From NCBI GenBank assembly GCA_963744755.1, contig CAVUUS010000003.1:537678-601677 (forward strand): a stretch of DNA of 64,000 bases. Reading direction: 5' to 3'. This document shows positions 3,112 through 25,406 of this stretch, one piece after another. The stretch comes from an uncultured Solirubrobacterales bacterium. GTDB taxonomy: Bacteria > Actinomycetota > Thermoleophilia > Solirubrobacterales > Solirubrobacteraceae. The translations under genes were made by a program, and so were the position numbers. Every line of letters begins with the position of its first letter. Positions within the stretch are counted from its first letter, which is position 1. The notes under the pieces were generated by a model, which made no database searches, was not told where the DNA came from, and was given only the letters and a program-made list of their open reading frames with translations.

Positions 3112-4593
3112 ATGACGCGCTGGTCTGAGGCCGGGGAGATGGGCTGGTCTGAGGCCGGGGAGATGCGCTCGTCTGAGGCCGCGCAGATGCGGCGGCTGGT
3201 TCGGATCCGCCGGCTGGCGGCGCTGTTGGTGACGGCCGTCTCCGTGACTCTGTTGGCCGTCTGCGCGCCGGCGTCGGCGCGCCCCCCGCGGATCGGGCAC
3301 GTGTTCACGATCGTGCTCGAGAACGAGGACGCCAGCACCACGTTCGGGCCTAATCCGCCTGCGCCATATCTGGCCAACACCCTGCGCTCGCAGGGTGCAT
3401 ATCTGCCCAACTACTACGGGATCGGGCATAACAGCCTTGACAACTACCTGGCCATGATCTCCGGCCAGGCGCCGAACACGACGACTCAGGCCGACTGCCC
3501 CGTGTTCAGCAACCTCACTCCCGGAAGCCTGGGGGCCAATGGGCAGGCCGGCGGCACCGGGTGCGTCTACCCGTCGGCGGTCCCCACGGTCGTCGATCAG
3601 CTTGCCGCCGCCGGCCACAGCTGGCGCTCGTACAACCAGTCGATGGGCTCGGATCCGGCACGAGAGTCGGCCACCTGCGGGCATCCTGCGATTGGGGCCC
3701 CGGACAACACCGAAGCCGCCACCCCGATCGACCAGTACGCCACACGCCACGACCCGTTTGTGTACTTCCACTCGATCATCGACAACGCCGGCCTCTGCGC
3801 CAGCCACGTGGTGAACCTGAACAGCCTCACCCACGATCTCGCTTCGGTCAAGACGACGCCCAGCTACGCGTTCATCACCCCCGATCTCTGCGCCGACGGA
3901 CACGACGCCGCCTGCGCCAACCCCGCTCGGCCCGGTGGGTTCGCGGGGATCGATGAATTCCTCGCCACCTGGATGCCGAAGATCCTGGGCTCGGCTGCCT
4001 ACAAGCAGGACGGGCTGGTGATGATCCTCTTCGACGAGGGACACAACGACGCGACGGCCTGCTGTGGAGAGATCCCCGGCCCGGGCAGCGCGATGCCCGG
4101 GATCACCGGGCCGGGCGGCGGCGACACCGGCGCCGTGCTCTTGTCTCCGTTCATAGCGCCCGGCACTGTCACCTCGGTCCCCTACAACCACTACGGCATG
4201 CTGCGCAGCGTCGAGGACATCTTCGGACTCAGCCATCTCGGTTATGCGGCGCTTTCCGGGGCGGCATCGTTCGGATCCGACGTCTTCACTCGCCCGTGCC
4301 TCGCGGCTAAGCGGCCGCACGCCAACCACGGAAAGCTGCCCCGCAACTCGGTCATCCGCGCGATCAGGCTGAGCCGCAGTCACGGTCGCGAACGGCTGTC
4401 CTTCACCGGTGTGTATCCGGGCAAGCTCAAGCTGACGCTGACGCCGCGCGCCAAGCACACGCACGCGCAAACGGTACGGCGGAGCATCGCCGCCTGCCAT
4501 TCCTACGCGATCGTCCTTCCACGCGGGCATTGGAGGTTGGCGATCGCGGCGGCGGTCGGCCGAGCCGCACAGCACGCATCAGCTCACTATTGA
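3112..4593 (+). CDS. phosphoesterase family protein (phospholipase C / acid phosphatase AcpA-like), secreted
   Basis: HVFTIVLENEDASTTFG and NYLAMISGQ motifs typical of the phosphoesterase family. ATG at 3112 is preceded by ggaaaggag. A signal-like segment follows the repeat region. Confidence 0.8.
   Translation: MTRWSEAGEMGWSEAGEMRSSEAAQMRRLVRIRRLAALLVTAVSVTLLAVCAPASARPPRIGHVFTIVLENEDASTTFGPNPPAPYLANTLRSQGAYLPNYYGIGHNSLDNYLAMISGQAPNTTTQADCPVFSNLTPGSLGANGQAGGTGCVYPSAVPTVVDQLAAAGHSWRSYNQSMGSDPARESATCGHPAIGAPDNTEAATPIDQYATRHDPFVYFHSIIDNAGLCASHVVNLNSLTHDLASVKTTPSYAFITPDLCADGHDAACANPARPGGFAGIDEFLATWMPKILGSAAYKQDGLVMILFDEGHNDATACCGEIPGPGSAMPGITGPGGGDTGAVLLSPFIAPGTVTSVPYNHYGMLRSVEDIFGLSHLGYAALSGAASFGSDVFTRPCLAAKRPHANHGKLPRNSVIRAIRLSRSHGRERLSFTGVYPGKLKLTLTPRAKHTHAQTVRRSIAACHSYAIVLPRGHWRLAIAAAVGRAAQHASAHY
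3121..3192. repeat. tandem repeat, 3 x 24 bp (tggtctgaggccggggagatgggc), third copy diverged
   Basis: Read directly. It encodes WSEAGEMG/WSEAGEMR/SSEAAQMR immediately after the start codon and before the signal peptide. Confidence 0.9.
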
Positions 4594-4612
4594 TCCGCCG
4601 AGGGCTCGAGGC

Positions 4613-5383
4613 TCAGCGACAGGTTGGATCGGGATCCCACCGAGCCGTTGACTGGGCCAGCGACAGTGGGCCGCCCGCCGGGATCAGCTGGATGTGATTG
4701 ACCTCGCTGTTGTTCGGATCGCCCGACGGATCGAATGGCCGGTACAGCCCGTAGGCCGCCAGCTCGGCTTCGCTGATCTGAGCCGCGCTGGAACGCAGCA
4801 GGCTGTTGACACCGATGTCCTCAGCCTGACCGAGGGTATGAGGGTCATTGGCAAACCCACCGACGGCGACGCTGTGGGCGGGAGTCCGGTATCCGCTGAT
4901 CCCGTAGATCGTCACGCCCAGCGCTCTGGCCAGTGCGCCCAGCTGCGCGGTGAGCTGAGGAAGCTGTCCCTGGACCTGACTGGTGCCGGGATCGGCGACG
5001 AAACCGGGGCCGGCCGCCGCCACGACCGGTTGTGCGTCGGCTCGGTTGGTGACGCCGCCGCACAGGTTCAGCCGGTTCAACTCGCGCTTCACCTCCGCCA
5101 GGGACGGCGCGTGGGCGTTGACGTCGCCGACCACCGGGGCGCCCGCGCCCGCGCCCGCAGCGGCGGCCCCCTGGACACCGGGCGCGGCCGCACCCTGGAC
5201 GCCGGCTGTGGGCTCAACCACCTGGGGGTGCGCGCGCGGCGCCGCGCCGCTCGTCGTCCCGGGCGCGCTCGATGCGTGCGTCTGACCCTGCGAGCCACAG
5301 CCGCCGATCGCGAGCCCGATCATCAACAGCGCGATTCGTGACCATGGGCACTTCGCCCCGTCGATCGCTCGGCTCCGCGCCAT
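4613..5383 (-). CDS. lipoprotein with C-terminal peptidase M15 (zinc D-Ala-D-Ala carboxypeptidase-like) domain
   Basis: Lipobox LAIGGC. C-terminal ISGYRTPAHS ... GQAEDI ... VNHIQL resembles the SxHxxGxAxD / H metal ligands of M15 cell-wall hydrolases. Confidence 0.7.
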   Translation of the reverse strand: MARSRAIDGAKCPWSRIALLMIGLAIGGCGSQGQTHASSAPGTTSGAAPRAHPQVVEPTAGVQGAAAPGVQGAAAAGAGAGAPVVGDVNAHAPSLAEVKRELNRLNLCGGVTNRADAQPVVAAAGPGFVADPGTSQVQGQLPQLTAQLGALARALGVTIYGISGYRTPAHSVAVGGFANDPHTLGQAEDIGVNSLLRSSAAQISEAELAAYGLYRPFDPSGDPNNSEVNHIQLIPAGGPLSLAQSTARWDPDPTCR

Positions 5384-11780: not shown

Positions 11781-11852
11781 GGCGACCGGTCTCGTCAGTA
11801 GGGCTGGCTGGGGAATCCTGGCGACCGGTCTCGTCAGTAGGGCTGGCTGGGC
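11781..11852. repeat. direct duplication, 2 x 32 nt identical with 39-bp period, covering the 3' end and stop codon of the GH6-like gene
   Basis: ggcgaccggtctcgtcagtagggctggctggg occurs at 11781 and at 11820. Confidence 0.95.
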
Positions 11853-13081
11853 CCTGGACCGAGTCGGTTGTTGGCGTGTGCCGCGAGGTCGATCGCCCGT
11901 GCCGTCCAGAAGGTGCCGGTCGCGGTGCCGCCGCGGCACGGGCCGCTGCTGTTGCCGGGGACGCTGGTCCACAGGAACGCGTCGACGCGGGGCAAGCCGG
12001 TATGCGTTGTGGGTAGTGGGCCGGCGCCGCGACCGGGTGGGTTGCAGAGGTCTTCGTTGCCTTGTGTGGAGGGGTGTGGATTGCGCTTCGGACCGTTGCC
12101 GTTGGTGGCGGTGTTGACGATGAAGTGCGCACCATGGGTATGACGCGAGATCTGCGTTGCCCAGCGGATCTCATTGATCGTCCAGTTGTTGTGGGTGCCG
12201 TTGGTCCAGAACCCGCGGATCCGGCCGATGTCGACGTGGTTGAGCGCCCGCCAGGTGTAGGCGGGGGAGTTGGCGTCGGAGTAGCCGCCCTCGACGTAGG
12301 CGACGACGTGTGGCAGGGTGGCGACGCGGTCGACCTCGTAGCGGACGAGCGCCTCCCACATGCCGAGATCGCCGTGCTTGGCCATGCAGCCGGAGGAGCC
12401 GAACGCGTCGGTCTCGAGCAACAGCACGGCGGGGCGGTTGCCGATGCCGGCGACGAACTCGTTGACACGCCGGCGGAACGCTGGTGTCGCTGCGTTCATT
12501 TCCGCTGGGGTTGCGCAGCCGCCGAGCGCGGGGTGCAGGAAGTAGGTGCTGACCACTGGAATCGAGCCAGGGTCGGCGGTGAAGTTTCCGCAGAAGAGCT
12601 TCTGGGTCTGCTTGTAGACCGCTCCGGGTCCGCCGCCCATCGCGAAGCCGAAGAGCCGATTGGTCTCAGGCTGGTCGGCAATCTTCTCGAGCATGCGGAT
12701 CTTCCACGCGACACTGCCCGAGGCGGTGAGGGCGCGGCGCGCGACGAAGCTGCGGAATGAGCCCCACGAGTCTCCGTCGACGAAACTGGGCAGCTGGGAG
12801 TGAACCGGGGCGGATGCGTCGATGCCGAGCAGCCGCGCGATCGCGCCGGCAGCGCTGCCGTGCTTGGGGCCATCGACGAAGAAGCGCGCGCCCGAGAGCG
12901 GGTCGGCGCCCGGCGCTGCCGGGAGCATCAGCGGGTTGCTCGGGTCGCGCTGAGCCGAATAGCGATCCTGGCACTGGGCCGTGGAGGCGTCTGCGGGCGA
13001 GGGCAGAAAGGCGATGGTCAGCAGGCACAGCATTGCCGCGAGGATCGCCTTGCGGCAAGCGGGCATGGAGATGAAGTTCAT
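11834..13081 (-). CDS. secreted glycoside hydrolase family 6-like protein
   Basis: Signal peptide. Motif series LLLETDAFG / YVEGGYSDA / GFWTNGTHNNW / FIVNTATNGNGP / DAFLWTSVPGNSSG parallels GH6 blocks (EPD.L, D.GH.GW, GF.TN.SN, .D..RNG, D..LW.K.PGESDG). The N-terminal RDC-type block is not evident. Confidence 0.6.
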   Translation of the reverse strand: MNFISMPACRKAILAAMLCLLTIAFLPSPADASTAQCQDRYSAQRDPSNPLMLPAAPGADPLSGARFFVDGPKHGSAAGAIARLLGIDASAPVHSQLPSFVDGDSWGSFRSFVARRALTASGSVAWKIRMLEKIADQPETNRLFGFAMGGGPGAVYKQTQKLFCGNFTADPGSIPVVSTYFLHPALGGCATPAEMNAATPAFRRRVNEFVAGIGNRPAVLLLETDAFGSSGCMAKHGDLGMWEALVRYEVDRVATLPHVVAYVEGGYSDANSPAYTWRALNHVDIGRIRGFWTNGTHNNWTINEIRWATQISRHTHGAHFIVNTATNGNGPKRNPHPSTQGNEDLCNPPGRGAGPLPTTHTGLPRVDAFLWTSVPGNSSGPCRGGTATGTFWTARAIDLAAHANNRLGPGPSQPY

Positions 13082-13374
13082 AGGAGAGTTCCGGGGTCGG
13101 GGGTGGACGGGGACGTCCGACAGCAGCGGTTGACACGCGTGCGGGGGCTCACCCGTGCCAGGCCGGTTCTTTGCGTAGCTGCTCCGTGAGCGGGTCAGGT
13201 GCCGCGAGGCGAAGTAGCCAGACGCCCGAGAGGGCGCTCATAGTCCTTCTCGGCCGAAGAACCCACCGCCTTAGGAAAAGGTGCGCCGACTCGACACCTG
13301 TTGCGCAACGTCAGGAGCCCCCGGGTGTTCTCTAGACAGGTGGACCACGACCAACACAGATCGGGCGCCGCCGG

Positions 13375-15294
13375 GTGTTGAGGGCTGCCGTCCCCAGCGC
13401 CCGTCGGGGCGGTTTGGTCCTGATCGCCTTCGTGCTGGCGTTCGTGGCGGCCGGCGCGGCGACCGCGCAGGCCCAGAGCTACAGCCCGGCGCCGCCGACG
13501 AAGGGCGCGCTCTACACAGATGGTCAGGCGAATCGGTACCTGCTCGGCGGGGCCTGGCTGTACCGCCCGGACCTGTCCGACGCGGGCCTCACCCAGGGCT
13601 GGTGGCGCGATCAGGCCGCGACCACCGGATGGTCGCCGACCACCGTCCCGAACTCATACAACACGGGCGATTTCTCGACCGCCAGCCAGAACGGCTACGT
13701 CGGCTGGTACCGGCGGGACTTCACGCTGCCGCGCGCGGCCTTTCCCAAGTCCGCGCCGGCCCGCTTCCAGCACTGGATCCTCCGCTTCGACTCGGTCAAC
13801 TACAGCGCGGACGTGTGGCTGAACGGCTACAAGCTCGGTAGCCACGCCGGGGCATACCTGCCGTTCGAGTTCGACATGAGCCACCTGCGCGCCGGCGTCA
13901 ACCGGCTAGTGGTGAGGGTCGACAACCGGCGCACGAAGCTGGACGTCCCCTCCGGGAACGGGGGCTGGTGGAACTTCGGAGGGTTGCTCGGCGAGGTCTA
14001 CCTCCGCGCGGTCACGCGCGTCGACGTGGCCCAGGTCCAGGTCAGGCCGATCCTTTCCTGCTCACGATGCGCGGCGACGATCGCCGCCCAGGCCGACCTG
14101 CGCAACCTCACGCGCTCGCGCCAGACGGTTCGGCTCAAGGGCGCGTACGGCAAAACGTCGGTCGACTTTGGATCGGTCACGATCGCCCCGCTCGGAACCT
14201 CGGTCGTGCGCACCAGCGCCCGCATCGCCCACCCGCGGCTGTGGTCGATCGACCACCCAACCCTCTACCGAGCCACACTGACTCTGCGCGATTCGGCCGG
14301 ACGGCGGATCGGGGGCTACGTCACCGAGAGCGGAATCCGCCGCATCACCGTCACCTCCGACGGACGTCTCGCGCTGAACGGACGGCTGCTCGACCTCCGC
14401 GGAGTCAGCATGCACGAGCAGAATTTAGTCGAGGGGGCCGCCCTGGACCCCGCGCATGACCGCCAGCTGATCGGCTGGGTGAGGTCACTCGGCGCGACGA
14501 TCATCAGGGCCCATTATCCGCTCAACCCGGAGCTGGAGGAGCTCGCTGACCGCAACGGCATCCTGCTGTGGTCGGAGATACCGGTCTGGCGGGTGAGCAG
14601 TCAGTACCTCGGCCAACCGGCGTTCCTGGCCAACGCGATGAAGATGCTGAAGGACAACATCCTCACCAATCAGAATCACCCCTCCGTGCTGCTGTGGAGT
14701 GTCGGCAACGAGTTGCCGCCGCCCGACCGCACTATCGCGGCCTACATCAAGCTGGCCGCCGCCACTGCGCGTGCGCTCGACCCGACTCGACCTGTCGCCA
14801 TGAGCGGAATCGATGCACGCTGCCACACGGCCTACGCTCCGCTGAGCGTGGTCGGATGGAACGAGTACTTCGGCTATTTCGCCGCCGGCGGCGGCGCCAC
14901 CGACGATCGCGACGCCCTCAGCGGTGCGCTCGACGCCGTGCGCGCCTGCAATCAGACCAGGGCTGTGATGGTCACGGAGTTCGGATTCGACGGAAACCGG
15001 ACCGGACCCGTCGAGCAGCGCGGCACCTACGCGTTCGAGTCCGACTCCCTGGCCTTCCACCTGGCGGTGATGGCCAGCAAGCCGTGGCTCTCGGGCGCGA
15101 TCACCTGGATCCTGCAGGATTTCGCCGCCTGGCCGGGATGGGCCGGCGGCAACCCCCTGGGCACGCCGCCGTTCGTGGCCAAGGGGCTCGTCGACCTCAA
15201 CGGCAACCTGAAACCCGCCTTCGCGGTCGTCGCCTCGATCTACCACGCCGTCCGGCAGATCGGCGCAGCCGGAAGCGCCGGGCCCGGCAGCTGA
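13375..15294 (+). CDS. secreted glycoside hydrolase family 2 protein
   Basis: Signal peptide. GH2 sugar-binding-like N-terminus. WSVGNE (acid/base) and VTEFGF (nucleophile) motifs. Confidence 0.85.
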   Translation: MLRAAVPSARRGGLVLIAFVLAFVAAGAATAQAQSYSPAPPTKGALYTDGQANRYLLGGAWLYRPDLSDAGLTQGWWRDQAATTGWSPTTVPNSYNTGDFSTASQNGYVGWYRRDFTLPRAAFPKSAPARFQHWILRFDSVNYSADVWLNGYKLGSHAGAYLPFEFDMSHLRAGVNRLVVRVDNRRTKLDVPSGNGGWWNFGGLLGEVYLRAVTRVDVAQVQVRPILSCSRCAATIAAQADLRNLTRSRQTVRLKGAYGKTSVDFGSVTIAPLGTSVVRTSARIAHPRLWSIDHPTLYRATLTLRDSAGRRIGGYVTESGIRRITVTSDGRLALNGRLLDLRGVSMHEQNLVEGAALDPAHDRQLIGWVRSLGATIIRAHYPLNPELEELADRNGILLWSEIPVWRVSSQYLGQPAFLANAMKMLKDNILTNQNHPSVLLWSVGNELPPPDRTIAAYIKLAAATARALDPTRPVAMSGIDARCHTAYAPLSVVGWNEYFGYFAAGGGATDDRDALSGALDAVRACNQTRAVMVTEFGFDGNRTGPVEQRGTYAFESDSLAFHLAVMASKPWLSGAITWILQDFAAWPGWAGGNPLGTPPFVAKGLVDLNGNLKPAFAVVASIYHAVRQIGAAGSAGPGS

Positions 15295-15301
15295 CCAAGC
15301 G

Positions 15302-16894
15302 CTACGGCGCCGGGACCTGCTGCTTTTCCAGCAGGAAGATGTGCGGGTGAGTGCTGTAGCCCGGAAGCACTCTGAGAATCTGGTTGGGCCGGAGACGGAC
15401 CGGAGTCGAAGCCTTCAGGCGAGTGAGCACGAAGGGCCCGCGGGTCACCGCTCCGACGTCGGTGAATCCGGCCAGCTCAGGCGGCTTATTGAAGTGCATG
15501 CGATGCAGCCCGCACAGGGCACCCCACCAGCAATGGAACACGTAGTGGGCCTGGTTGGCGGTGATGATGTCGAGCTCGCGAATCCGCTCAGGCTTGCGCG
15601 AGGACATTCTGACCAGGTACGGCTTGTACAGGCTGACGGGATACGGCGAGCCGTAGCGCAGGAGCAGAACCACTCGCGCGCCCGGTGTCCCCGGCGCCAG
15701 CGGCGCTCCGATGGCTTTGGTCACCGGGCGCCAGTCCGGGCGCTGCAGCCAGGGCCTGGCATCGATGTAGACGGTGCCGGCGATCCCCACCGCGCACAGA
15801 CCAGCCGCGGCGAGCAGGCCAAGACGCCCGAAGGCCGGCGTGGCCAGCCCGACGGCGACCACCACCGCGAGCGGGACCCAGAGCTCGAGTAGGTTGCGCG
15901 TGTTGGCCAGCTGGCTTCCGGCTGCCTCGACGATCATGATCAGCACGAAGCCGGTGACCACGATCCCGCCCATGCGCAGGGCACCCAATTTGTGCTCGCG
16001 CTGACCTCGGCGGATCAGCACGACCACGGCCACGATGGCCGTCGCGACCGCTACCAGGAAGATGATCGTGTAGCGGGGCAGGGCAAACCCGACCACGAAC
16101 TGCTCGCCGAGCTGGTGCAGACGGACCTTCAGCGGCGCTTGAGCGATCCACAGGGTGAACTTGCTCTGCTTGTGGGCCAGCGGGATCAGCGCCACCCCGA
16201 CGGCGCCCGCGGCGCCCACGCCGACCCAGGCCGACACCGTGCGACGGTGAGTCCACAGCAGCCAGCACGCCTCCGGGACCACGACCGCCGCCGCGAAGTA
16301 GTGAGCCAGCATGGCCAGGGCGGCGCTGATCGCCCACAAGCCAAACCGCCGTGGCGTCGGTTGCACGCGCGCCTGCTCGAAGGCGAGCAACGTCAGCGCG
16401 GAGAGCGCGACCAGCATCGAGTACGGCCGGGCCTCCTGGGAGTACCAGACGAGCAGTGAGCTCGATGCGGTCAGCGCGGCCGCGATCAGGCCCGCGCGGG
16501 TCGAGGCGACTCGCCGGCCGAGCGCATAAGCGACCGGAACCGCCGCCACGCCCATCACCGCGGAGAGAGACCGAACGCCGAACTCGCCGAAGCCGAACAC
16601 ACGGGCCCAGGCCCAGGCGATCGCGTAGTACAGCGGTGGGGTCGACTCCCGGTGCGGCAGCGCGGACATCGATGCCCAGAACGACTTGTGCAGGACCGAC
16701 AGCGTGATGCCCTCGTCCAGCCAGTAGCCCTGGTGGCCGAGGAAGACGAAGCGGAGCGCGGCCGCGGCCACGACGATCGCGGCCAAGGCGAGGCCGGGCC
16801 GATCGATCGCGCGAGTCGCGCTCGCGCGCCGCTCGCGAGCCGGCGCCTCGACGCGCGTTTTCTCCGGCGACAAGCTCACAGAGCCTTCGGTCAT
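15302..16894 (-). CDS. GT39/ArnT-like (PMT_2) membrane glycosyltransferase
   Basis: Polytopic membrane protein with an N-terminal YWLDEG motif loop and a soluble C-terminal domain, as in dolichyl-phosphate-mannose-type transferases. Confidence 0.75.
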   Translation of the reverse strand: MTEGSVSLSPEKTRVEAPARERRASATRAIDRPGLALAAIVVAAAALRFVFLGHQGYWLDEGITLSVLHKSFWASMSALPHRESTPPLYYAIAWAWARVFGFGEFGVRSLSAVMGVAAVPVAYALGRRVASTRAGLIAAALTASSSLLVWYSQEARPYSMLVALSALTLLAFEQARVQPTPRRFGLWAISAALAMLAHYFAAAVVVPEACWLLWTHRRTVSAWVGVGAAGAVGVALIPLAHKQSKFTLWIAQAPLKVRLHQLGEQFVVGFALPRYTIIFLVAVATAIVAVVVLIRRGQREHKLGALRMGGIVVTGFVLIMIVEAAGSQLANTRNLLELWVPLAVVVAVGLATPAFGRLGLLAAAGLCAVGIAGTVYIDARPWLQRPDWRPVTKAIGAPLAPGTPGARVVLLLRYGSPYPVSLYKPYLVRMSSRKPERIRELDIITANQAHYVFHCWWGALCGLHRMHFNKPPELAGFTDVGAVTRGPFVLTRLKASTPVRLRPNQILRVLPGYSTHPHIFLLEKQQVPAP

Positions 16895-18614: not shown

Positions 18615-19862
18615 TCAGGGTCGCGGTGGCCGACCGAGCAGCTTCTCGATCACCTTGGCAGCGATCGGGGCGGCGTCGGTGCCGCCGAAACCGCCGTTTA
18701 CGCCGCTGAGCACCACGGCGATCGCGATTCTTGGGTTGTTGGCCGGTGCGAAACCGATGAACCACGCATCGGTCCGCTTGGAGCGTGGATTACCGGCGTG
18801 TACCGTGCCGGTCTTGCCGGCGACCTGCAGCCGGCTCAGACCGGCGGCGGTGCCCGTTCCCCGCTCGACGACGTCTCTCATCATCTGGGCCAACGCTTGC
18901 GCGGTCGACGGTGCCATCACCTGGTTGTAGGGGATTGACCGGCCCGGTTCGAGGTGCGGGGCCATCAGCTTGCCCCGGTCGGCGACGGCGGCGGCCACCA
19001 TCGCCATCTGCAGCGGCGTCGCAGCCAGCTGACCCTGGCCGACGGCCAGCCGCCCCAGGTCGACTCGGGCGCTGCTCGGCAGCACCAGCGCGTCGCCCAG
19101 ACGCACCCCGCTGGCGGCGAGCCGGGCGGACGCCGAGTCGAGCCGCGGGGATGCGTAGAATCCAAAGCGGCGCATGTATGTGGTCATCGACCGCCGCCCG
19201 ACAGCTTCCCCGACCTGCGCGAAGACGGTGTCGACCGAATAGCGCAGCGACTCGGTCAGCGTGATCCGTCCGAAGCTCTGGTCGCCCTCATTGCGCAGGG
19301 GCGTCCCGGAGACCGACAGCGGCGATGGCCCGGCGATCCGCGAACCCGGCGCGTAGCGTCCGGTGTCGATCGCGGCGGCGGTCGTGACGATGTCGAACGT
19401 CGCCCCGGGCGGGAACTCGAGCGCAGCAGCGGGACCGGTGAAGGCGGGACCACCGCCCTGCGACGTGTTGGCATACATCGCCTTGATCGCGCCCGTCCGC
19501 GGATCGAGGGCGACCACGGATCCGGCGCGACCCGCCAACCCGAGCGCTGCGGCGCCTTGGGCTGCCGGGTCGAGGGCGGGCTGTGCTGAGCTCTTCCCCG
19601 ACGGCGTCGGTCCGGTCGTGCCATGACGAGCACCGAGCAGCGGAATCGCCAGCGCGAGGACCACCGCGACCGGCACCACCACGGCGGCCAGGGTGAGGGT
19701 CAGGCGGCGGATCCGTCGCGGGCGCCCGTCCGAGCTCACCCGTGGTATGGAGCCGGATTCCGCCTCGAGCTCGGCGATCTTCCGCCAGACCGTATCGATG
19801 GGCGGGCGCTCGGACTCGGGAACCGGATTGGCGGCAGCCAGCCGCTCGAGCAGATCACTCAT
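18615..19862 (-). CDS. single-pass membrane protein: N-terminal anti-sigma-like segment plus extracytoplasmic PBP transpeptidase-like domain with degenerate active site
   Basis: 4-nt overlap with the upstream ECF sigma gene. TM at residues ~52-76. GSVVALDPRTGAIKAM...PPGATFDIVT (SxxK replaced by ATFD), YSVDTVF (SxN replaced by SVD), AGKTGT retained. Confidence 0.75.
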   Translation of the reverse strand: MSDLLERLAAANPVPESERPPIDTVWRKIAELEAESGSIPRVSSDGRPRRIRRLTLTLAAVVVPVAVVLALAIPLLGARHGTTGPTPSGKSSAQPALDPAAQGAAALGLAGRAGSVVALDPRTGAIKAMYANTSQGGGPAFTGPAAALEFPPGATFDIVTTAAAIDTGRYAPGSRIAGPSPLSVSGTPLRNEGDQSFGRITLTESLRYSVDTVFAQVGEAVGRRSMTTYMRRFGFYASPRLDSASARLAASGVRLGDALVLPSSARVDLGRLAVGQGQLAATPLQMAMVAAAVADRGKLMAPHLEPGRSIPYNQVMAPSTAQALAQMMRDVVERGTGTAAGLSRLQVAGKTGTVHAGNPRSKRTDAWFIGFAPANNPRIAIAVVLSGVNGGFGGTDAAPIAAKVIEKLLGRPPRP

Positions 19863-20380
19863 CTCACTGCCTCCATCGAGTCGGATCGAGCCGGGTCCCC
19901 GCTACGGCCCAGGGCGTCCGCCAAACGACGGCGAGCGCGATGCAGCCGCATCGCGAATGCTCTGCGCGAGCAGCCCATCACAGCGGCCGCCCGGGCCAGA
20001 TCGAGCCCCTCCCACGCGACCAGCATCAACACCTCACGGTCGGCTGCACTCAGCGCCCCGAGCGCTTCGCCGAGTACCGAGTCCACGTTCGGCGGCTGGA
20101 CCGGAGCACCGGGTCGTTCGTGGCTGAGGCGCTCGGACAGCGCGCTCTGCCGACGCGTCGCCCGCCGCTGGTTGGCGATGATCCGCCGTGCGCACCCCAG
20201 CAACCACGGCAGCTCGTCGGCAGGGAGGTCCTCGAGACGCCGCCAGGCCACCACGAAGACGTCGCTCACGACATCGTCGGCAGCCCCCACGGCCACCCGG
20301 CGCAGAGCGTACGCCCGCACGGCCGCAGCATGCTCCACGAAAAGTGCCTCGAGCCGACGGCGCTGGTTCAGATCGTCCAT
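19859..20380 (-). CDS. ECF-type RNA polymerase sigma-70 factor
   Basis: Region 2 (DVVSDVFVVAWRRLEDL...PWLLGCARRIIAN) and region 4 (LSAADREVLMLVAWEGLDLARAAAVMGCSRRAFAMRLHRARRRL). Confidence 0.85.
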   Translation of the reverse strand: MDDLNQRRRLEALFVEHAAAVRAYALRRVAVGAADDVVSDVFVVAWRRLEDLPADELPWLLGCARRIIANQRRATRRQSALSERLSHERPGAPVQPPNVDSVLGEALGALSAADREVLMLVAWEGLDLARAAAVMGCSRRAFAMRLHRARRRLADALGRSGDPARSDSMEAVR

Positions 20381-20454
20381 ATCCAGCCTATGTCCGTCAT
20401 CCGGACAACGATCACACGATCCGTCGCCCGCGTCCCCGATAGCCGGGAAATGGC

Positions 20455-21963
20455 ATGATCGGGCGCGTGACCGAACTAAGCGAGCAGAACATCGCTTACC
20501 CTGCGGCCGGTCGTCGCCCGGCGGGAAGCGCTCCAGAGGAGGTCGCCCCTCATGTCGTGGTGCTGTTCGGAGCGACCGGGGACTTGGCCCGCCGGAAGCT
20601 GCTCCCGGGCCTGACCCGCCTGCTGTTGTCAGAGCTCGCGCCAGACATCCAGATCGTGGGGACCTCGCTCGAGGACTACGACACCGAGTCGTTTCGGGAG
20701 TTCGCCCGCAGTTCGGTCGAGGAGTTCGGCATCCACACCCACACCGATGAGGACATGGCGGCGTTTACCGCAAAGCTTCACTACGTCCCGCAGAGCGAGG
20801 GGCCCGAGGCGCTGGCCCAGGCGGTCTCGGCTGCGGAGCGCGAGCTGGGCGACGAGGTCCATCGGCTTCATTACCTGAGCGTTCCGCCGAAGGCGGCGCT
20901 TCAGGTGATCGATACGCTCAACGAAGCCGATCTGGTGCAGCGTTCGCGCATCATCATGGAGAAGCCGTTCGGAAGCGATCTGGAGAGCGCGGTCAAGCTG
21001 AACGATGAGCTGCACAAGACGTTCAGCGAGAGCCAGATCTTTCGGATCGACCACTTCCTCGGTAAGGAGCCGGCACAGAACATCCTCGCCTTCCGGTTTG
21101 CCAATGGGCTGTTCGAGCCGATCTGGAGCCGCCACTTCATCGACCACGTCCAGATCGACATCCCGGAGACGCTGGGGCTCGATAAGCGGGTCGGCTTCTA
21201 CGAATCCACCGGGGCCTACAAGGACATGGTGGTCACCCACCTGCTGCAGGTGCTGGCCTTCGTCGCGATCGAACCACCCACCGCGCTCGAGCCGCGGGCG
21301 ATCAGCGAGGAGAAGAACAAGGTCTTCCGCTCGCTGATGCCGATACAGCCCAAAGACGTCGTGCGCGGGCAGTACGAGGGTTACCGCAGCGAGGAGGGCG
21401 TGGCAGCCCATTCGGATACCGAAACGTTCATCGCCCTCAAGTGCGGGATCGACAACTGGCGCTGGGCCGGAGTGCCTTTCTATCTCCGCACGGGTAAGCG
21501 TATGCCGGAAGGACAGCGCATCGTCTCGATCGCCTTCCGCGAAGCGCCGAAGAGCATGTTTCCAGCCGGTTCCGGTGTCGGGTCGCAGGGCCCGGACCAT
21601 CTGACCTTCGACCTGGCCGACGCCTCCAGGCTGTCGTTGTCGTTCTACGGGAAACGACCCGGACCTGGCATGCGACTGGACAAGTTGAGCATGCAGTTCG
21701 CCACCAGCGAGACCGAGGAGGCCGGAGAGGTTCTAGAGGCCTACGAACGCCTGCTGCTGGACACTATGCGGGGCGATCACACCCTGTTCACCACGGCGGA
21801 AGGGATCGAGAGCCTGTGGGAGCGCTCGGCACCCCTGCTGGACGACCCGCCTCCGGTGAAGACGTACGCTCCCGGGACCTGGGGCCCGAACGCCATCCAT
21901 CAGCTGATCGCGCCACACGCATGGCGGCTGCCGTTTGAGCGGGTTTGGCGCGAGCGCAAGTGA
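20455..21963 (+). CDS. zwf: glucose-6-phosphate 1-dehydrogenase
   Basis: LFGATGDLARRKL (NADP site) and RIDHFLGKE active-site motif; full length. Confidence 0.92.
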   Translation: MIGRVTELSEQNIAYPAAGRRPAGSAPEEVAPHVVVLFGATGDLARRKLLPGLTRLLLSELAPDIQIVGTSLEDYDTESFREFARSSVEEFGIHTHTDEDMAAFTAKLHYVPQSEGPEALAQAVSAAERELGDEVHRLHYLSVPPKAALQVIDTLNEADLVQRSRIIMEKPFGSDLESAVKLNDELHKTFSESQIFRIDHFLGKEPAQNILAFRFANGLFEPIWSRHFIDHVQIDIPETLGLDKRVGFYESTGAYKDMVVTHLLQVLAFVAIEPPTALEPRAISEEKNKVFRSLMPIQPKDVVRGQYEGYRSEEGVAAHSDTETFIALKCGIDNWRWAGVPFYLRTGKRMPEGQRIVSIAFREAPKSMFPAGSGVGSQGPDHLTFDLADASRLSLSFYGKRPGPGMRLDKLSMQFATSETEEAGEVLEAYERLLLDTMRGDHTLFTTAEGIESLWERSAPLLDDPPPVKTYAPGTWGPNAIHQLIAPHAWRLPFERVWRERK

Positions 21964-21996: not shown

Positions 21997-24765
21997 TCAA
22001 TCTTTGAGACTCACAGTCTCGGCGGCGATCAGCATCTGCGCGGCGTGCCAATGCGCGGCCAGCGCCGTCACGTCGGCCTCCGTCCGGCCGTTGGCCTGAC
22101 CGTCGCGGCCACGGCTCTCCAGTTCCGAAGCCGCCGAGGTGACGTCGCTCGCGCCGACCATCTGCGCGCCGCTCTTGATCCGGTGCGCCGCGTCGGCGAG
22201 CCCCGCTGGGTCGCCGCTGACCGCCGCGTCCCGCAGCCTGGTCATATCCTCGGTCATCGCCCGTGAAAGGTCTTGGAGCATCCGCGTGAGCTCGGCCGGG
22301 GTGAACAGAGAGCCCAGTTCCGCCAGCCGCGAGCGGTCGACGGCGGGGCCGGCCGTCGCCGGATCCGGAAGCCATTGGTCGAGCATCTCGCCCACGGCGG
22401 CACCACTGATCGGCTTGGCCATGTAGTCATCCATGCCCGCCTCGAGGCAACGTTGGCGATCGCCGGCCATTGCGTTCGCGGTCATCGCGACGACCGGGAC
22501 CCGCTCACCGGAGAGGGCCTCACGACGCCGGATCTCGCGGGTGGTCGCGTAACCGTCGAGGACTGGCATCTGGCAGTCCATGAAGATCAGGTCCCATCGT
22601 CCCCCCGCGTCGTGCATCTCCAGGAGCTTCTCGCCATCAGGAGCATTGGCGGCCCGGTATCCACGCTTGGCGAGCATCCGCTCGATCAGCATCCAATTCA
22701 CGGCCTGGTCCTCGGCGACGAGGATCCGGAGCGGGCTGGGGATCGCAGGCGCGCGAGGAACCATCGACGGCGTACTCGTCACGGTGGGCCTCGGCTCCGG
22801 TTGGACTGCGCCGGCCTGGCTCGCCATCGCCGCCGTGATCGCGTCGTGCAGGCGCGATTGACGCACCGGCTTGGTCAGCCGCCCGCTGAATAGATCGACC
22901 GGATCGCCGCTACGGCCGCTCGCCGACGAGGTGAGGAGAATCAGGCGCGTGCGGGGCAGCCGGTTCGAATCCCTGATCCGTCCAGCCAGCTGTATCCCGT
23001 TCTCGCCCGGCATGTTGAGGTCGATCAGCGCGACGTCGAAGGGATCTCCCTCCGAGGCGCCGCGATCCAGCTCGATCATCGCCGCGGCCGCGTCCTCGGC
23101 CACCGCCGGCCGCATCCCCCAAGACTGGGCGTAGGCCTCGAAGACGCGCCGGTTCGTGGCGTTGTCGTCGACGACCAGGACGCGAAGGCCATCGAGCGAA
23201 ATCGCCGCGACCGGAGCGGGTGCTTCCGCCTCGGCCGCCGTGAAGGGGATCTGGAAACGGAACGTGCTGCCCTGGCCGAGTTCGCTCTCTACCTCGAGCG
23301 CGCCCCCCATCAGGTTGGTCAGCTCGAGTGAGATGGTCAGGCCCAAGCCCGTGCCGCCAAACTCGCGCGTCGTGCTCGTGTCGGCTTGGGTGAACGCCTC
23401 GAACAGCCACTTGATCCGGTCGGCCGCGATCCCGATCCCGGTGTCGCTAACCTCGAAGCGGAGCAACGTCTTGCCCTCCTCGTGTCCCGCGACGGTGACC
23501 TCGATCACGACCTCTCCGGTGGTGGTGAACTTGACCGCGTTGGAGAGCAGGTTTGCCAGGATCTGACCCACCCGGGCTCGGTCGCCGCTGACCGAACGCG
23601 GGACGTCGGCGTGAACGAAGGACTGGAGCTCGAGTCGCTTGGTTGCCGCAGTCGCCGCGACCATGTCGCAGGTCACCTCGACCACGTCCCGCACGTCGAA
23701 GTCCAGCCGCTCGAGCTCGAGACGTCCGGCCTCGATCTTGGCCAGGTCGAGCACATCGTTGACCACGATCATCAGCGCTTCGCCGGAGGCGCGCGCGACA
23801 TCGACGTAGCCGCTCTGCTCTGGGCTCACGGAAGTCTGAGCCAGGAGGTCGAGCATCCCCACGACGCCGTTCAGAGGGGTCCGGATCTCGTGGCTCATGT
23901 TGGCCAAGAACGTCGACTTCACCTGCGCCTCCGCCTCCGCATCGGAGAGCGCCTCCCGGAGCTGAGCACGGGCGTCGATGAGCTCGGCGCTGCGGCCCTC
24001 CAGCGACCCGGCCATGTCGTTGAACGCCCGCCCGAGCTGCGCGACCTCGCCGAGGCCGACCAGCGGGACACGCGTGGTGAGGTCTCCCCCGGCCAGACGA
24101 TCGGCGGCGGACGCGACAGTCCGGACCGGGCGTAGAACCAGCCGCAGAATGATCGCTTCGCGCGTGAGCATGAGCAGCAGCGTCACTCCCAGCCCGATTC
24201 CGGCGATCACCAGCGTTTCGTTGCTCGTTTCATCGACCGTGCCGCGCGCGCGAGCGCGGGCGGCGGTCAATTCGTGAATGAGCCCCGAGAACAGCCCGCC
24301 CAGCGCGGCCATGCGTCGCCCGCCCTCCTGGGACAGCGCCGCCCGGCGCCCAGGCGACAGGGTGCTCGGGGCGGCGATCGCGGCGGGCGCATAGTCCCTG
24401 AGATAGGCCGTGGCCAACGTATCGAGCCGGTCGCTCCGGCTCCGCTCGACCGTTCCGACTGCGGTGCGCCGGAGTGTCCGGAGCTCGGCGGGGACCGCCT
24501 GCCGGCCACGTTCGTAGGCCGCCATGTACTCGGGCTTGCCGTTGAGCAGAAAGTCACGTGCCGCGGCGTCCGTCCCAACCAGGTCGCGTTGCGCGATGAG
24601 CGCGGTGTCGAGCTGATTGCTCACCGCTCTGTCCTGGGCGCGCTGGTGGGAGAGATCGTTCAACGAGACGATCATCAGGACGAAGAACCCGCCCACCACC
24701 AACGCCGTCATCACGGCCAGGCCGACGATCAGCGCGCGTAGCCCTCCACGTCCGGGCGGGGTCAC
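21997..24765 (-). CDS. hybrid sensor histidine kinase (CHASE3-HAMP-HisKA-HATPase-REC-REC-HPt)
   Basis: H-box FLANMSHEIRTPLN. N/G boxes. Two receiver domains (VLVVDDN...DLNMP and ILVAEDQ...MDCQMP). C-terminal HPt (AAHRIKSGAQMVGA). GTGA overlap with the response regulator gene. Confidence 0.9.
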   Translation of the reverse strand: MTPPGRGGLRALIVGLAVMTALVVGGFFVLMIVSLNDLSHQRAQDRAVSNQLDTALIAQRDLVGTDAAARDFLLNGKPEYMAAYERGRQAVPAELRTLRRTAVGTVERSRSDRLDTLATAYLRDYAPAAIAAPSTLSPGRRAALSQEGGRRMAALGGLFSGLIHELTAARARARGTVDETSNETLVIAGIGLGVTLLLMLTREAIILRLVLRPVRTVASAADRLAGGDLTTRVPLVGLGEVAQLGRAFNDMAGSLEGRSAELIDARAQLREALSDAEAEAQVKSTFLANMSHEIRTPLNGVVGMLDLLAQTSVSPEQSGYVDVARASGEALMIVVNDVLDLAKIEAGRLELERLDFDVRDVVEVTCDMVAATAATKRLELQSFVHADVPRSVSGDRARVGQILANLLSNAVKFTTTGEVVIEVTVAGHEEGKTLLRFEVSDTGIGIAADRIKWLFEAFTQADTSTTREFGGTGLGLTISLELTNLMGGALEVESELGQGSTFRFQIPFTAAEAEAPAPVAAISLDGLRVLVVDDNATNRRVFEAYAQSWGMRPAVAEDAAAAMIELDRGASEGDPFDVALIDLNMPGENGIQLAGRIRDSNRLPRTRLILLTSSASGRSGDPVDLFSGRLTKPVRQSRLHDAITAAMASQAGAVQPEPRPTVTSTPSMVPRAPAIPSPLRILVAEDQAVNWMLIERMLAKRGYRAANAPDGEKLLEMHDAGGRWDLIFMDCQMPVLDGYATTREIRRREALSGERVPVVAMTANAMAGDRQRCLEAGMDDYMAKPISGAAVGEMLDQWLPDPATAGPAVDRSRLAELGSLFTPAELTRMLQDLSRAMTEDMTRLRDAAVSGDPAGLADAAHRIKSGAQMVGASDVTSAASELESRGRDGQANGRTEADVTALAAHWHAAQMLIAAETVSLKD

Positions 24766-25406
24766 CGGACGAGCCCGCGGCGCATGCCCTCGGCAACGGC
24801 GGCAGCCCGATCGTTGACCTCGAGCTTCTCGAACAAGGCCTTGATGTGGGTCTTCACCGTGGAGGCGCTGATGAAGAGCCGCGTGCCGATCTCCGGCGCG
24901 GAGCGCCCTTCGGCGATCAAGCCGAGGACCTGGGCCTCGCGCGGGCTGAGCGACGGCCGCGCCGCAAGGGAGCGCGTGCGCAGCTCGGCGGCGAGCCCCT
25001 GCTGAACCTCCGGCGCGAGCACCGTTCCACCCGCGGCGACTGTGGTGACCGCGGTGCAGATGGCCGCCATCGTCGCCGCCTTGGTGAGGAACCCGGCCGC
25101 CCCCAGCTCGAGCGCGTCGTAGACGATCGACCCGGCATCTTCGCCCGAGAGGATGATCACGCGGGTCGGGCGGGACTCGCGACGGATCGTGCGAAGAATC
25201 TCCACCCCCTCGAGCGATGGGAGGCGGTGGTCGAGGATCGCCACCGCCGGAGCGAGCTCCCGGACCGCCTCCAGCGCCTCGCGGCCATCGCCGGCCGCTC
25301 CCACCAGCTCAAACTCCGGTTGGGACTGGATCGCGCGCGCGATCGCTTCCCGGAAGACCGGGTGATCGTCGGCTATGTAGACGGTGGTGCGATCGGTCGT
25401 GGTCAT
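24762..25406 (-). CDS. NarL/FixJ-type response regulator (REC + LuxR HTH)
   Basis: VYIADDHPVFREA...AILDHRLP receiver and LSPREAQVLGLIAEGRSAPEIGTRLFISASTVKTHI HTH. Confidence 0.9.
   Translation of the reverse strand: MTTTDRTTVYIADDHPVFREAIARAIQSQPEFELVGAAGDGREALEAVRELAPAVAILDHRLPSLEGVEILRTIRRESRPTRVIILSGEDAGSIVYDALELGAAGFLTKAATMAAICTAVTTVAAGGTVLAPEVQQGLAAELRTRSLAARPSLSPREAQVLGLIAEGRSAPEIGTRLFISASTVKTHIKALFEKLEVNDRAAAVAEGMRRGLVR

Follow-up and report, generated by a model that had tools for sequence, protein, structure and literature searches.

BlaR1 is acylated at the serine of its SxxK motif, and its signal reaches a repressor by way of a cytoplasmic zinc protease. The receptor-type anti-sigma factors include RsiV, which has lysozyme as its ligand, and RsgI, which carries carbohydrate-binding modules. 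To our knowledge, the known sensors with a penicillin-binding protein (PBP) fold, namely BlaR1, MecR1, and PbpP, all rely on acylation, and we know of no pseudo-PBP member among the receptor anti-sigma factors of the RsiV/RsgI type. How bacteria might monitor peptidoglycan in the absence of covalent chemistry is poorly understood. In Bacillus thuringiensis, beta-lactams are sensed by a separate PBP, PbpP, and the anti-sigma factor of Sigma-P is RsiP (PMC8092216, PMC8844934). Here we analyzed 64,000 nucleotides of DNA (the window) from an uncultured Solirubrobacterales bacterium (contig CAVUUS010000003.1, positions 537,678 to 601,677). The window contains a gene for an extracytoplasmic function (ECF) sigma factor followed by a gene for a 415-aa membrane protein, which we call the partner protein, with a short N-terminal head, one transmembrane (TM) helix, and a PBP transpeptidase (TP) domain with degenerate catalytic motifs. 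We think that the partner protein is probably an anti-sigma factor with a pseudo-PBP sensor.

The upstream gene encodes an ECF (group 4) sigma-70 factor in which region 2 (Pfam Sigma70_r2, residues 13-77) and region 4 (Sigma70_r4_2, residues 103-153) are the only sigma regions and whose length, 173 aa, agrees with the class norm of about 170-200 aa. The protein scored 48.5 bits against the NCBIfam model sigma70-ECF TIGR02937 (cutoff 42.9), and its nearest solved structures are SigL of Mycobacterium tuberculosis (6dv9, E=1e-10) and CnrH (4cxf, E=9e-9). There were 2027 sigma homologs at E<=1e-10 with source names, where given, of Solirubrobacteraceae, and the sigma-2 domain of an ortholog, modeled with AlphaFold2 (AF2), superposed on ECF sigma-2 domains at 1.6-2.3 Å. 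An overlap of 4 nt (ATGA, 19862-19859) joins the sigma and partner genes. GGAGG at 19874-19870 falls within the sigma codons for M-E-A (ATG GAG GCA) and lies 7 nt before the ATG of the partner gene, which gives good support to this start codon and makes translational coupling of the two genes plausible. The overlap from which our first-pass annotation had predicted co-translation is thus confirmed, with a Shine-Dalgarno sequence inside the end of the sigma gene. All related loci keep both a sigma tail reading ...MEAV(R) and a gene overlap, which measures 1-8 nt.

We collected such loci by contig look-ups of exact proteins and by a metagenome scan. An ECF sigma gene (170-185 aa) was located directly upstream of the partner gene and overlapped it by 1-4 nt in all 12 distinct PBP-type loci (the window, L081-L086, L088, L090, L093, L095, and L096). 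The sigma gene in L082 was shortened by the gene caller, and the underlying open reading frame is intact. When loci with non-PBP proteins that bear the same head were included, the sigma gene directly preceded the head-bearing gene in 15 of 15 cases, and each of the six loci found by scanning metagenomes with a profile of the head fit this sigma/partner pattern. One metagenomic protein, P0027, known from its protein sequence, is an in-frame fusion of sigma factor and partner (...SDAMEAL/SDLLERL...), as would be expected if a short deletion had occurred within the ATGA overlap. The flanking genes vary from locus to locus, indicating that the unit is the sigma/partner pair, and no conserved alternative anti-sigma gene was found near the cassette among the loci compared. 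Synteny with ECF sigma genes, on which the initial proposal depended, therefore held at every PBP-type locus and was reinforced by one natural fusion. These comparisons of gene order strongly support the 415-aa protein as a dedicated partner of the ECF sigma factor.

The partner protein shares with all head-bearing proteins a layout of head, Arg-rich segment, and one TM helix. In the window protein, the Arg-rich stretch (RPRRIRR, residues 47-53) comes directly before the hydrophobic segment L54-L76, which makes the head cytoplasmic and the PBP domain extracytoplasmic (N-in, C-out). This agrees with the topology proposed at first reading, with the TM helix now assigned to residues 54-76. A Pfam search of the protein, which had been suggested as a check, matched PF00905 at residues 114-406 (E=2.1e-48) with full coverage of the profile and returned no anti-sigma N-terminal domain. 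The best sequence matches in the PDB were PbpA-type class B PBPs (4mnr, 4jbf, and 3un7, E~1e-26). The AF2 model of the 415-aa protein had a predicted template modeling score of 0.76 and a predicted local distance difference test score (pLDDT) mostly >90 in the domain, and the top Foldseek matches of this model were 4qjg, 4jbf, 4mnr, and 3un7 (E~1e-22 to 1e-24).

The PDB alignments pair PGATFDIVT of the partner protein with PGSTFKIVT and YSVDTVF with SSNTVF. These alignments and the motif tables described below bear out the original reading of an SxxK box that has become A-T-F-D, an SxN box that reads S-V-D, and an intact KTG box. No match to either pedestal domain, PF03717 or PF21922, was found in the partner protein with Pfam. 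The protein thus lacks the arrangement of a class B PBP, in which a TM anchor and a pedestal precede the TP domain; PF21922 is present in true PbpA paralogs. Between the membrane and the domain is a linker in which the first ~20 residues are predicted to be disordered (pLDDT <50 at residues 77-88) and residues 99-108 to form a helix. The rest of the linker is the counterpart of the final helix before the TP domain in PbpA, and the paralogs align from approximately residue 97.

Homologs of the partner protein fell into two groups. Members of the first are ~380-425 aa long, contain the same head, align over their full length, and match PF00905 only. The second consists of PbpA proteins of ~474 aa from Solirubrobacteraceae/Solirubrobacterales sources, which match PF21922 and PF00905 and have 52-55% identity to the query that is confined to the TP domain. 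We compared the catalytic motifs of 38 members of the first group (the family) with those of 78 PbpA paralogs. At the position of the SxxK Lys (157), all 38 family members have an acidic residue (22 Glu and 16 Asp) and all 78 paralogs have Lys. The change that defines the family is therefore Lys to Asp/Glu, and because the replacement is always acidic it points to a new constraint at this position rather than to drift. The SxxK Ser position (154) is more variable, with Ala in 25 family members, Ser in eight, Gly in four, and Asp in one, compared with Ser in 78 of 78 paralogs. At the SxN Asn position (211), 22 members have Asn, 12 have Asp, and four have other residues, making the S-V-D of the window a minority state. 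The KTG Lys position (350) is Lys in 24 members, Gln in 13, and Met in one, with T351 kept in 37 of the 38 and G352 in 36. Of the Ala and Asp substitutions whose conservation among homologs was to be checked, the acidic replacement of Lys is thus shared by all members, Ala by 25, and the Asp of the SxN box by a minority.

By contrast with these motifs, the surroundings of the active site have been kept. Residues F156, V159, L206, T212, A348, G349, F368, A372, and P373, which frame the pocket, are invariant in the family, T160, T351, G352, and T353 are each kept in 35-37 of the 38 members, and 80 of the 317 domain positions are at least 90% conserved and identical in the family and PbpA groups. 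This combination is the signature of a conserved pseudo-enzyme that is predicted to retain its binding cleft. We also considered that the gene might be a PBP pseudogene in decay or an artifact of sequencing. The loss of catalytic residues would fit this, and a second assembly of the L088 locus, L089, contains a PBP-like gene that is split into calls of 79 aa and 201 aa (4013-4854), the result of either a frameshift from an assembly error or a decaying copy. The idea is refuted by the occurrence of the same substitutions in 38 homologs, down to 48% identity, and the intact 415-aa frame, the confident fold, the invariant framework residues, and the synteny at 12 of 12 loci also speak against it, leaving it with practically no probability. 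The non-catalytic PBP domain described in the first-pass annotation is thus a conserved derivative and neither a sequencing error nor a pseudogene.

A functional DD-transpeptidase contains the SxxK Ser and the general-base Lys; in this family the Lys is present in none of the 38 members and the Ser is missing from 30. The loss of these residues argues that the domain neither cross-links peptidoglycan nor undergoes canonical acylation by beta-lactams. We nevertheless weighed a form of residual or altered catalysis in which the Asp/Glu acts as the general base of a hydrolase resembling a DD-peptidase or beta-lactamase, since the replacement is always acidic and Ser is kept in eight members. This appears very unlikely given that 30 members, among them the window protein with its Ala154, lack a nucleophile where the Ser would be, that seven of the eight Ser-retaining members have Gln in place of the KTG Lys, and that the complete catalytic set occurs in no family member.

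The head (residues 1-30) is the most conserved stretch of the partner protein, with a mean column identity of 0.78 versus 0.69 for the TP domain. It is modeled by AF2 as two helices (residues 2-11 and 22-36, pLDDT 74-91) and follows the motif MxDLLERLAAANPV-x5-6-PxIxxVWRK, or in a broader form MxD[LV]xERL[AR]AxNPV...P.I[ED].VW[RK][KR]. Using a profile of the head only, we made an exhaustive HMMER search of 1.84 billion cluster representatives (E<=1e-3) and obtained 120 matching representatives, all but three of which match at residues 1 to ~40. The three exceptions, P0124 (1998 aa), P0166 (1131 aa), and P0233 (543 aa), are probably unrelated repeat proteins that matched through short internal repeats (LLERLAAANP-like, profile positions 3-16). 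Head-bearing proteins range from 43 to 507 aa; in each, the head is followed by an Arg-rich stretch, a single TM helix, and an ectodomain that diverges among the proteins. In a tally of 86 such proteins of at least 180 aa, we found DsbE/ResA/TlpA-like thioredoxin folds in 11-12, CU044_5270-family domains in 13, RskA_C or NCBIfam "anti-sigma factor" domains in 5-9, and a PBP domain in four, with many ectodomains having no match. The matches to the NCBIfam "anti-sigma factor" model NF052375 among these proteins fall on the ectodomains and not on the head.

Three head-bearing proteins of non-PBP type, in L092 (thioredoxin type), L097, and L098, are encoded directly behind sigma genes that belong to the same group and that they overlap by 4, 1, and 8 nt, respectively, showing that the head is associated with this sigma group irrespective of the ectodomain it carries. 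The head-bearing proteins (P0121-P0239) suggest a large modular family of sigma partners in the lineage. Based on this modularity and on the linkage to sigma genes, which together are its strongest support, we infer that the head is a sigma-binding (anti-sigma) module. The same observations bear on the idea that the pseudo-PBP is a co-transcribed effector rather than a regulator, such as a sponge for beta-lactams or D-Ala-D-Ala or a peptidoglycan-binding factor that acts in the wall, and that the sigma factor is controlled in some other way. ECF sigma operons often hold effector genes, and this idea would accommodate a head that resembles no known anti-sigma family and AF2 models that show no docking. 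Yet nothing in an effector would call for its cytoplasmic tail to be the most conserved part, the head is common to about 120 protein clusters with unrelated ectodomains that include the anti-sigma-type RskA_C, every example examined follows a sigma gene of the same group, and there is no other conserved candidate anti-sigma gene nearby. We consider an effector role quite improbable.

Comparison with described anti-sigma factors sets the head apart. Class I anti-sigma N-terminal domains have about 80-90 residues and four helices, and frequently an HxxxCxxC motif, whereas the head has ~36 residues and two helices. SigL is the closest solved sigma factor and the RskA_C ectodomain occurs on some head-bearing proteins, which recalls the SigK/RskA and SigL/RslA pairs of M. 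tuberculosis; RskA and RslA, however, have a class I (zinc-finger type) N-terminal domain to which the head is unrelated. CnrY too has a very short helical cytoplasmic segment followed by one TM helix, and its sigma factor CnrH is among the closest solved structures (PMC7406223, PMC6851896). In class II anti-sigma factors of the CnrY type, this segment embraces sigma-2 and sigma-4. The length and helix content of the head are compatible with such a factor, and no CnrY chain was matched when the head profile was run against the PDB at E<=10. Unlike the partner protein, CnrY pairs with a separate periplasmic metal sensor, CnrX, and CnrY-like genes are at position -2. RsiV and RsgI, which are single-pass anti-sigma factors that bind a ligand directly through the ectodomain, resemble the partner protein in its proposed role, and the exchange of ectodomains among head-bearing proteins resembles the RsgI paralog series, but both the N-terminal anti-sigma domains and the ectodomains are different.

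Systems with a penicillin-binding fold differ from this locus in other ways. As in the Sigma-P/RsiP/PbpP system, an ECF sigma factor would be under the control of a single-pass anti-sigma factor, with a PBP-fold protein sensing the cell wall or beta-lactams. In the window, the putative anti-sigma factor itself contains the PBP fold, and this fold is without the Ser and Lys, which excludes sensing by acylation. In BlaR1 and MecR1, the extracytoplasmic penicillin-binding fold is likewise the sensor of a membrane signal transducer. These have an acylatable sensor and a multi-pass zinc metalloprotease, whereas the partner protein has no nucleophile or Lys, no protease domain, and one TM helix, its output would be an ECF sigma factor, and models of class D beta-lactamases match it only at E>0.03. 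From the PbpA class B PBPs (3un7, 4jbf, and 4mnr), with which it shares the transpeptidase fold, the protein differs in its missing PF21922 pedestal and catalytic residues, its N-terminus, and its sigma gene neighbor in place of a cell-wall operon. The 415-aa protein is therefore outside the functional PBPs, the class B PBPs, the class I anti-sigma factors, and the BlaR1 family. The pairing of an ECF sigma factor with an anti-sigma factor would be of a known kind; what appears to be new is the sensor domain and an undescribed minimal head. In the literature searched we found no anti-sigma factor with a penicillin-binding domain and no description of the module, in line with its initial designation as a type not recognized as described. 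Such a genomic context is absent from the main text of the ECF reclassification, whose supplements may hold an unnamed group with it.

We examined the DNA upstream of the sigma gene and found a promoter-like element, GTGTGAT-N15-GGACATAGG. One copy with equal geometry is present in the window and in L081-L086, L088, L090, L093, and L095, and it ends 6-7 nt before the sigma start across the loci examined. The window has one match at <=2 mismatches versus 0.06 expected. With a position weight matrix (PWM), the window element scored 43.3, the next best site 11.2, and the maxima of shuffled sequences 6.5-14.9. A PWM scan of the window and the loci for further target promoters returned the putative autoregulatory site only, with no second site. 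We propose that the element is an autoregulated ECF promoter that would give rise to a leaderless or near-leaderless transcript. The glucose-6-phosphate dehydrogenase gene (zwf, 20455-21963) is divergent from the sigma gene, and the element fills 31 of the 74 bp between them (20381-20454), so that the zwf promoter must overlap the element or lie within the sigma gene. In L092, the locus of the thioredoxin-type paralog, the element before the sigma gene is related to this one but differs from it (CTGTAATC-N14-GGGCATGTA, 3509-3540, PWM score 16.3), which hints that promoter specificities have diverged among the paralogous sigma factors of the group.

With moderate confidence, we interpret the locus as an autoregulated two-gene cassette of Solirubrobacterales-type Actinobacteria that encodes an ECF sigma factor and, as its cognate anti-sigma factor, a single-pass protein that senses through a pseudo-PBP domain. 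In this model, the ~30-residue helix-loop-helix head would hold the sigma factor at the membrane. The ectodomain is a copy of the PbpA transpeptidase domain that has lost the pedestal and the acylation machinery and has kept the framework of the pocket. It would most likely be a non-covalent receptor for a ligand related to the cell wall, such as a stem peptide, a muropeptide, nascent peptidoglycan, or possibly a beta-lactam. The state of the ligand might affect how stable the protein is or which conformation it takes; the disordered linker (residues 77-88), for example, could become accessible to site-1 cleavage. By analogy with RsiV, RsiP, and RseA, intramembrane proteolysis would then free the sigma factor, which could transcribe its own operon from GTGTGAT-N15-GGACATAGG and a further regulon. 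Of the original proposal that a non-catalytic PBP-fold ligand sensor is the partner of the sigma factor, the non-catalytic fold stands, and so does the dedicated partnership, based on the gene order at the 12 loci, the fusion, and the head; ligand sensing is retained as a proposal.

Several observations weigh against this interpretation. The head matches no known anti-sigma family in Pfam, NCBIfam, or the PDB at E<=10, and the genes that neighbor the cassette in the window are not cell-wall genes. Since no other target promoter was found in the window or the loci, the link to the cell wall comes from the ancestry of the domain only. An AF2 model of residues 1-245 of the natural fusion P0027 was confident in sigma-2 (pLDDT 91-98) and in the head helices (82-90), but sigma-4 was poorly modeled (53-73), no compact complex was formed, and the model as a whole did not superpose on solved sigma/anti-sigma complexes. 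The head was modeled with equal confidence in the 415-aa protein without the sigma factor (see above). Its confidence is thus independent of the sigma factor, and this control is silent on docking.

The anti-sigma factor could also sense a protein rather than a small ligand, with the pseudo-PBP docking on components of the elongation or division machinery (PbpA, RodA, or other PBPs) or, as a structural probe, on intact peptidoglycan, and the loss of this contact upon disturbed synthesis triggering release of the sigma factor. A recent duplicate, as the identity to the PbpA TP domain of the lineage would allow, could keep surfaces for such partners, and class B PBPs that have no catalytic activity can serve as scaffolds, as in B. 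subtilis and C. difficile (PMC12516126). The residues that are invariant in the family frame the active-site pocket and are a better fit to a ligand in the cleft. Moreover, the pedestal (PF21922), which mediates the contact of class B PBPs with SEDS proteins, is absent from the partner protein. For these reasons we regard a protein sensor as unlikely and favor a ligand-binding anti-sigma factor.

If it is correct that a ligand-binding pseudo-PBP controls an ECF sigma factor, the cassette would be a simple two-gene reporter for ligands of a non-acylating PBP pocket, and the invariant exchange of Lys for Asp/Glu provides a mutational handle. The head would add a compact and possibly orthogonal sigma/anti-sigma family for use in synthetic circuits. 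The model would also annotate hundreds of genes from abundant soil Actinobacteria that are now called "hypothetical" or "peptidoglycan glycosyltransferase"; metagenome annotations name these genes as active PBPs, which is wrong. As a speculation that we put forward tentatively and think could well be mistaken, the head may represent a new class of minimal anti-sigma domain that forms plug-and-play sigma/anti-sigma pairs with interchangeable ectodomains in Solirubrobacterales-like Actinobacteria. The PBP-derived member might then be the first anti-sigma factor to read the cell wall, through uncross-linked stem peptides or muropeptides, or to detect beta-lactams with a non-acylating pseudo-PBP pocket, with the Lys position recruited as an acidic ligand-binding residue. 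The positions of the features discussed are collected in Table 1.

Table 1. Coordinates of the sigma/partner cassette and its parts in the window, and of head-protein genes at other loci.
Feature	Coordinates	Strand	Basis
ECF (group 4) sigma-70 gene, 173 aa	19859..20380	minus	Pfam and NCBIfam matches
Partner gene, 415 aa	18615..19862	minus	Open reading frame, read from sequence
Candidate translational-coupling junction: GGAGG Shine-Dalgarno and ATGA start/stop overlap	19859..19874	minus	Read from sequence
Promoter-like element GTGTGAT-N15-GGACATAGG	20387..20417	minus	Ends 6 nt before sigma ATG
Cytoplasmic head, residues 1-36 (MSDLLERLAAANPV...PPIDTVWRKIAELEAE), helix-loop-helix	19755..19862	minus	Conservation, AF2
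Single TM helix, residues 54-76	19635..19703	minus	Read from sequence; AF2 helix 62-76
Juxtamembrane linker, residues 77-113	19524..19634	minus	AF2, PbpA alignment
Extracytoplasmic PbpA-type transpeptidase-fold domain (pseudo-PBP), residues 114-406	18645..19523	minus	PF00905, AF2, Foldseek
Degenerate SxxK box A154-T155-F156-D157	19392..19403	minus	Sequence, PDB alignments, motif tables
SxN box reading S209-V210-D211	19230..19238	minus	Sequence, motif tables
Intact KTG box K350-T351-G352	18807..18815	minus	Sequence, motif tables
Non-PBP head-protein genes	L092 4067-4687; L097 from 1826; L098 from 2501		

The surroundings of the cassettes showed a few further features. In L088 (5356-7516) and L090 (7180-7525) the cassette adjoins parB, and parA and gidB are also present in L088, which puts these two cassettes close to the region of the chromosomal origin. 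In L081 and L085, a DUF4031 gene comes before the sigma gene, and the neighbors are otherwise not conserved. In the window, a separate signaling operon on the minus strand (21997-25406) lies beside zwf. It encodes a hybrid histidine kinase of 922 aa (CHASE3-HAMP-HisKA-HATPase-REC-REC-Hpt) and a LuxR-type response regulator (24762-25406), and the two genes overlap by 4 nt. On the other side, a carbohydrate-active/glycosylation cluster (11834-16894) contains a GH6-like gene (11834-13081), a gene for a secreted GH2 protein (13375-15294), and a gene for a PMT_2 glycosyltransferase (15302-16894), and as far as can be seen this cluster is unrelated to the cassette.

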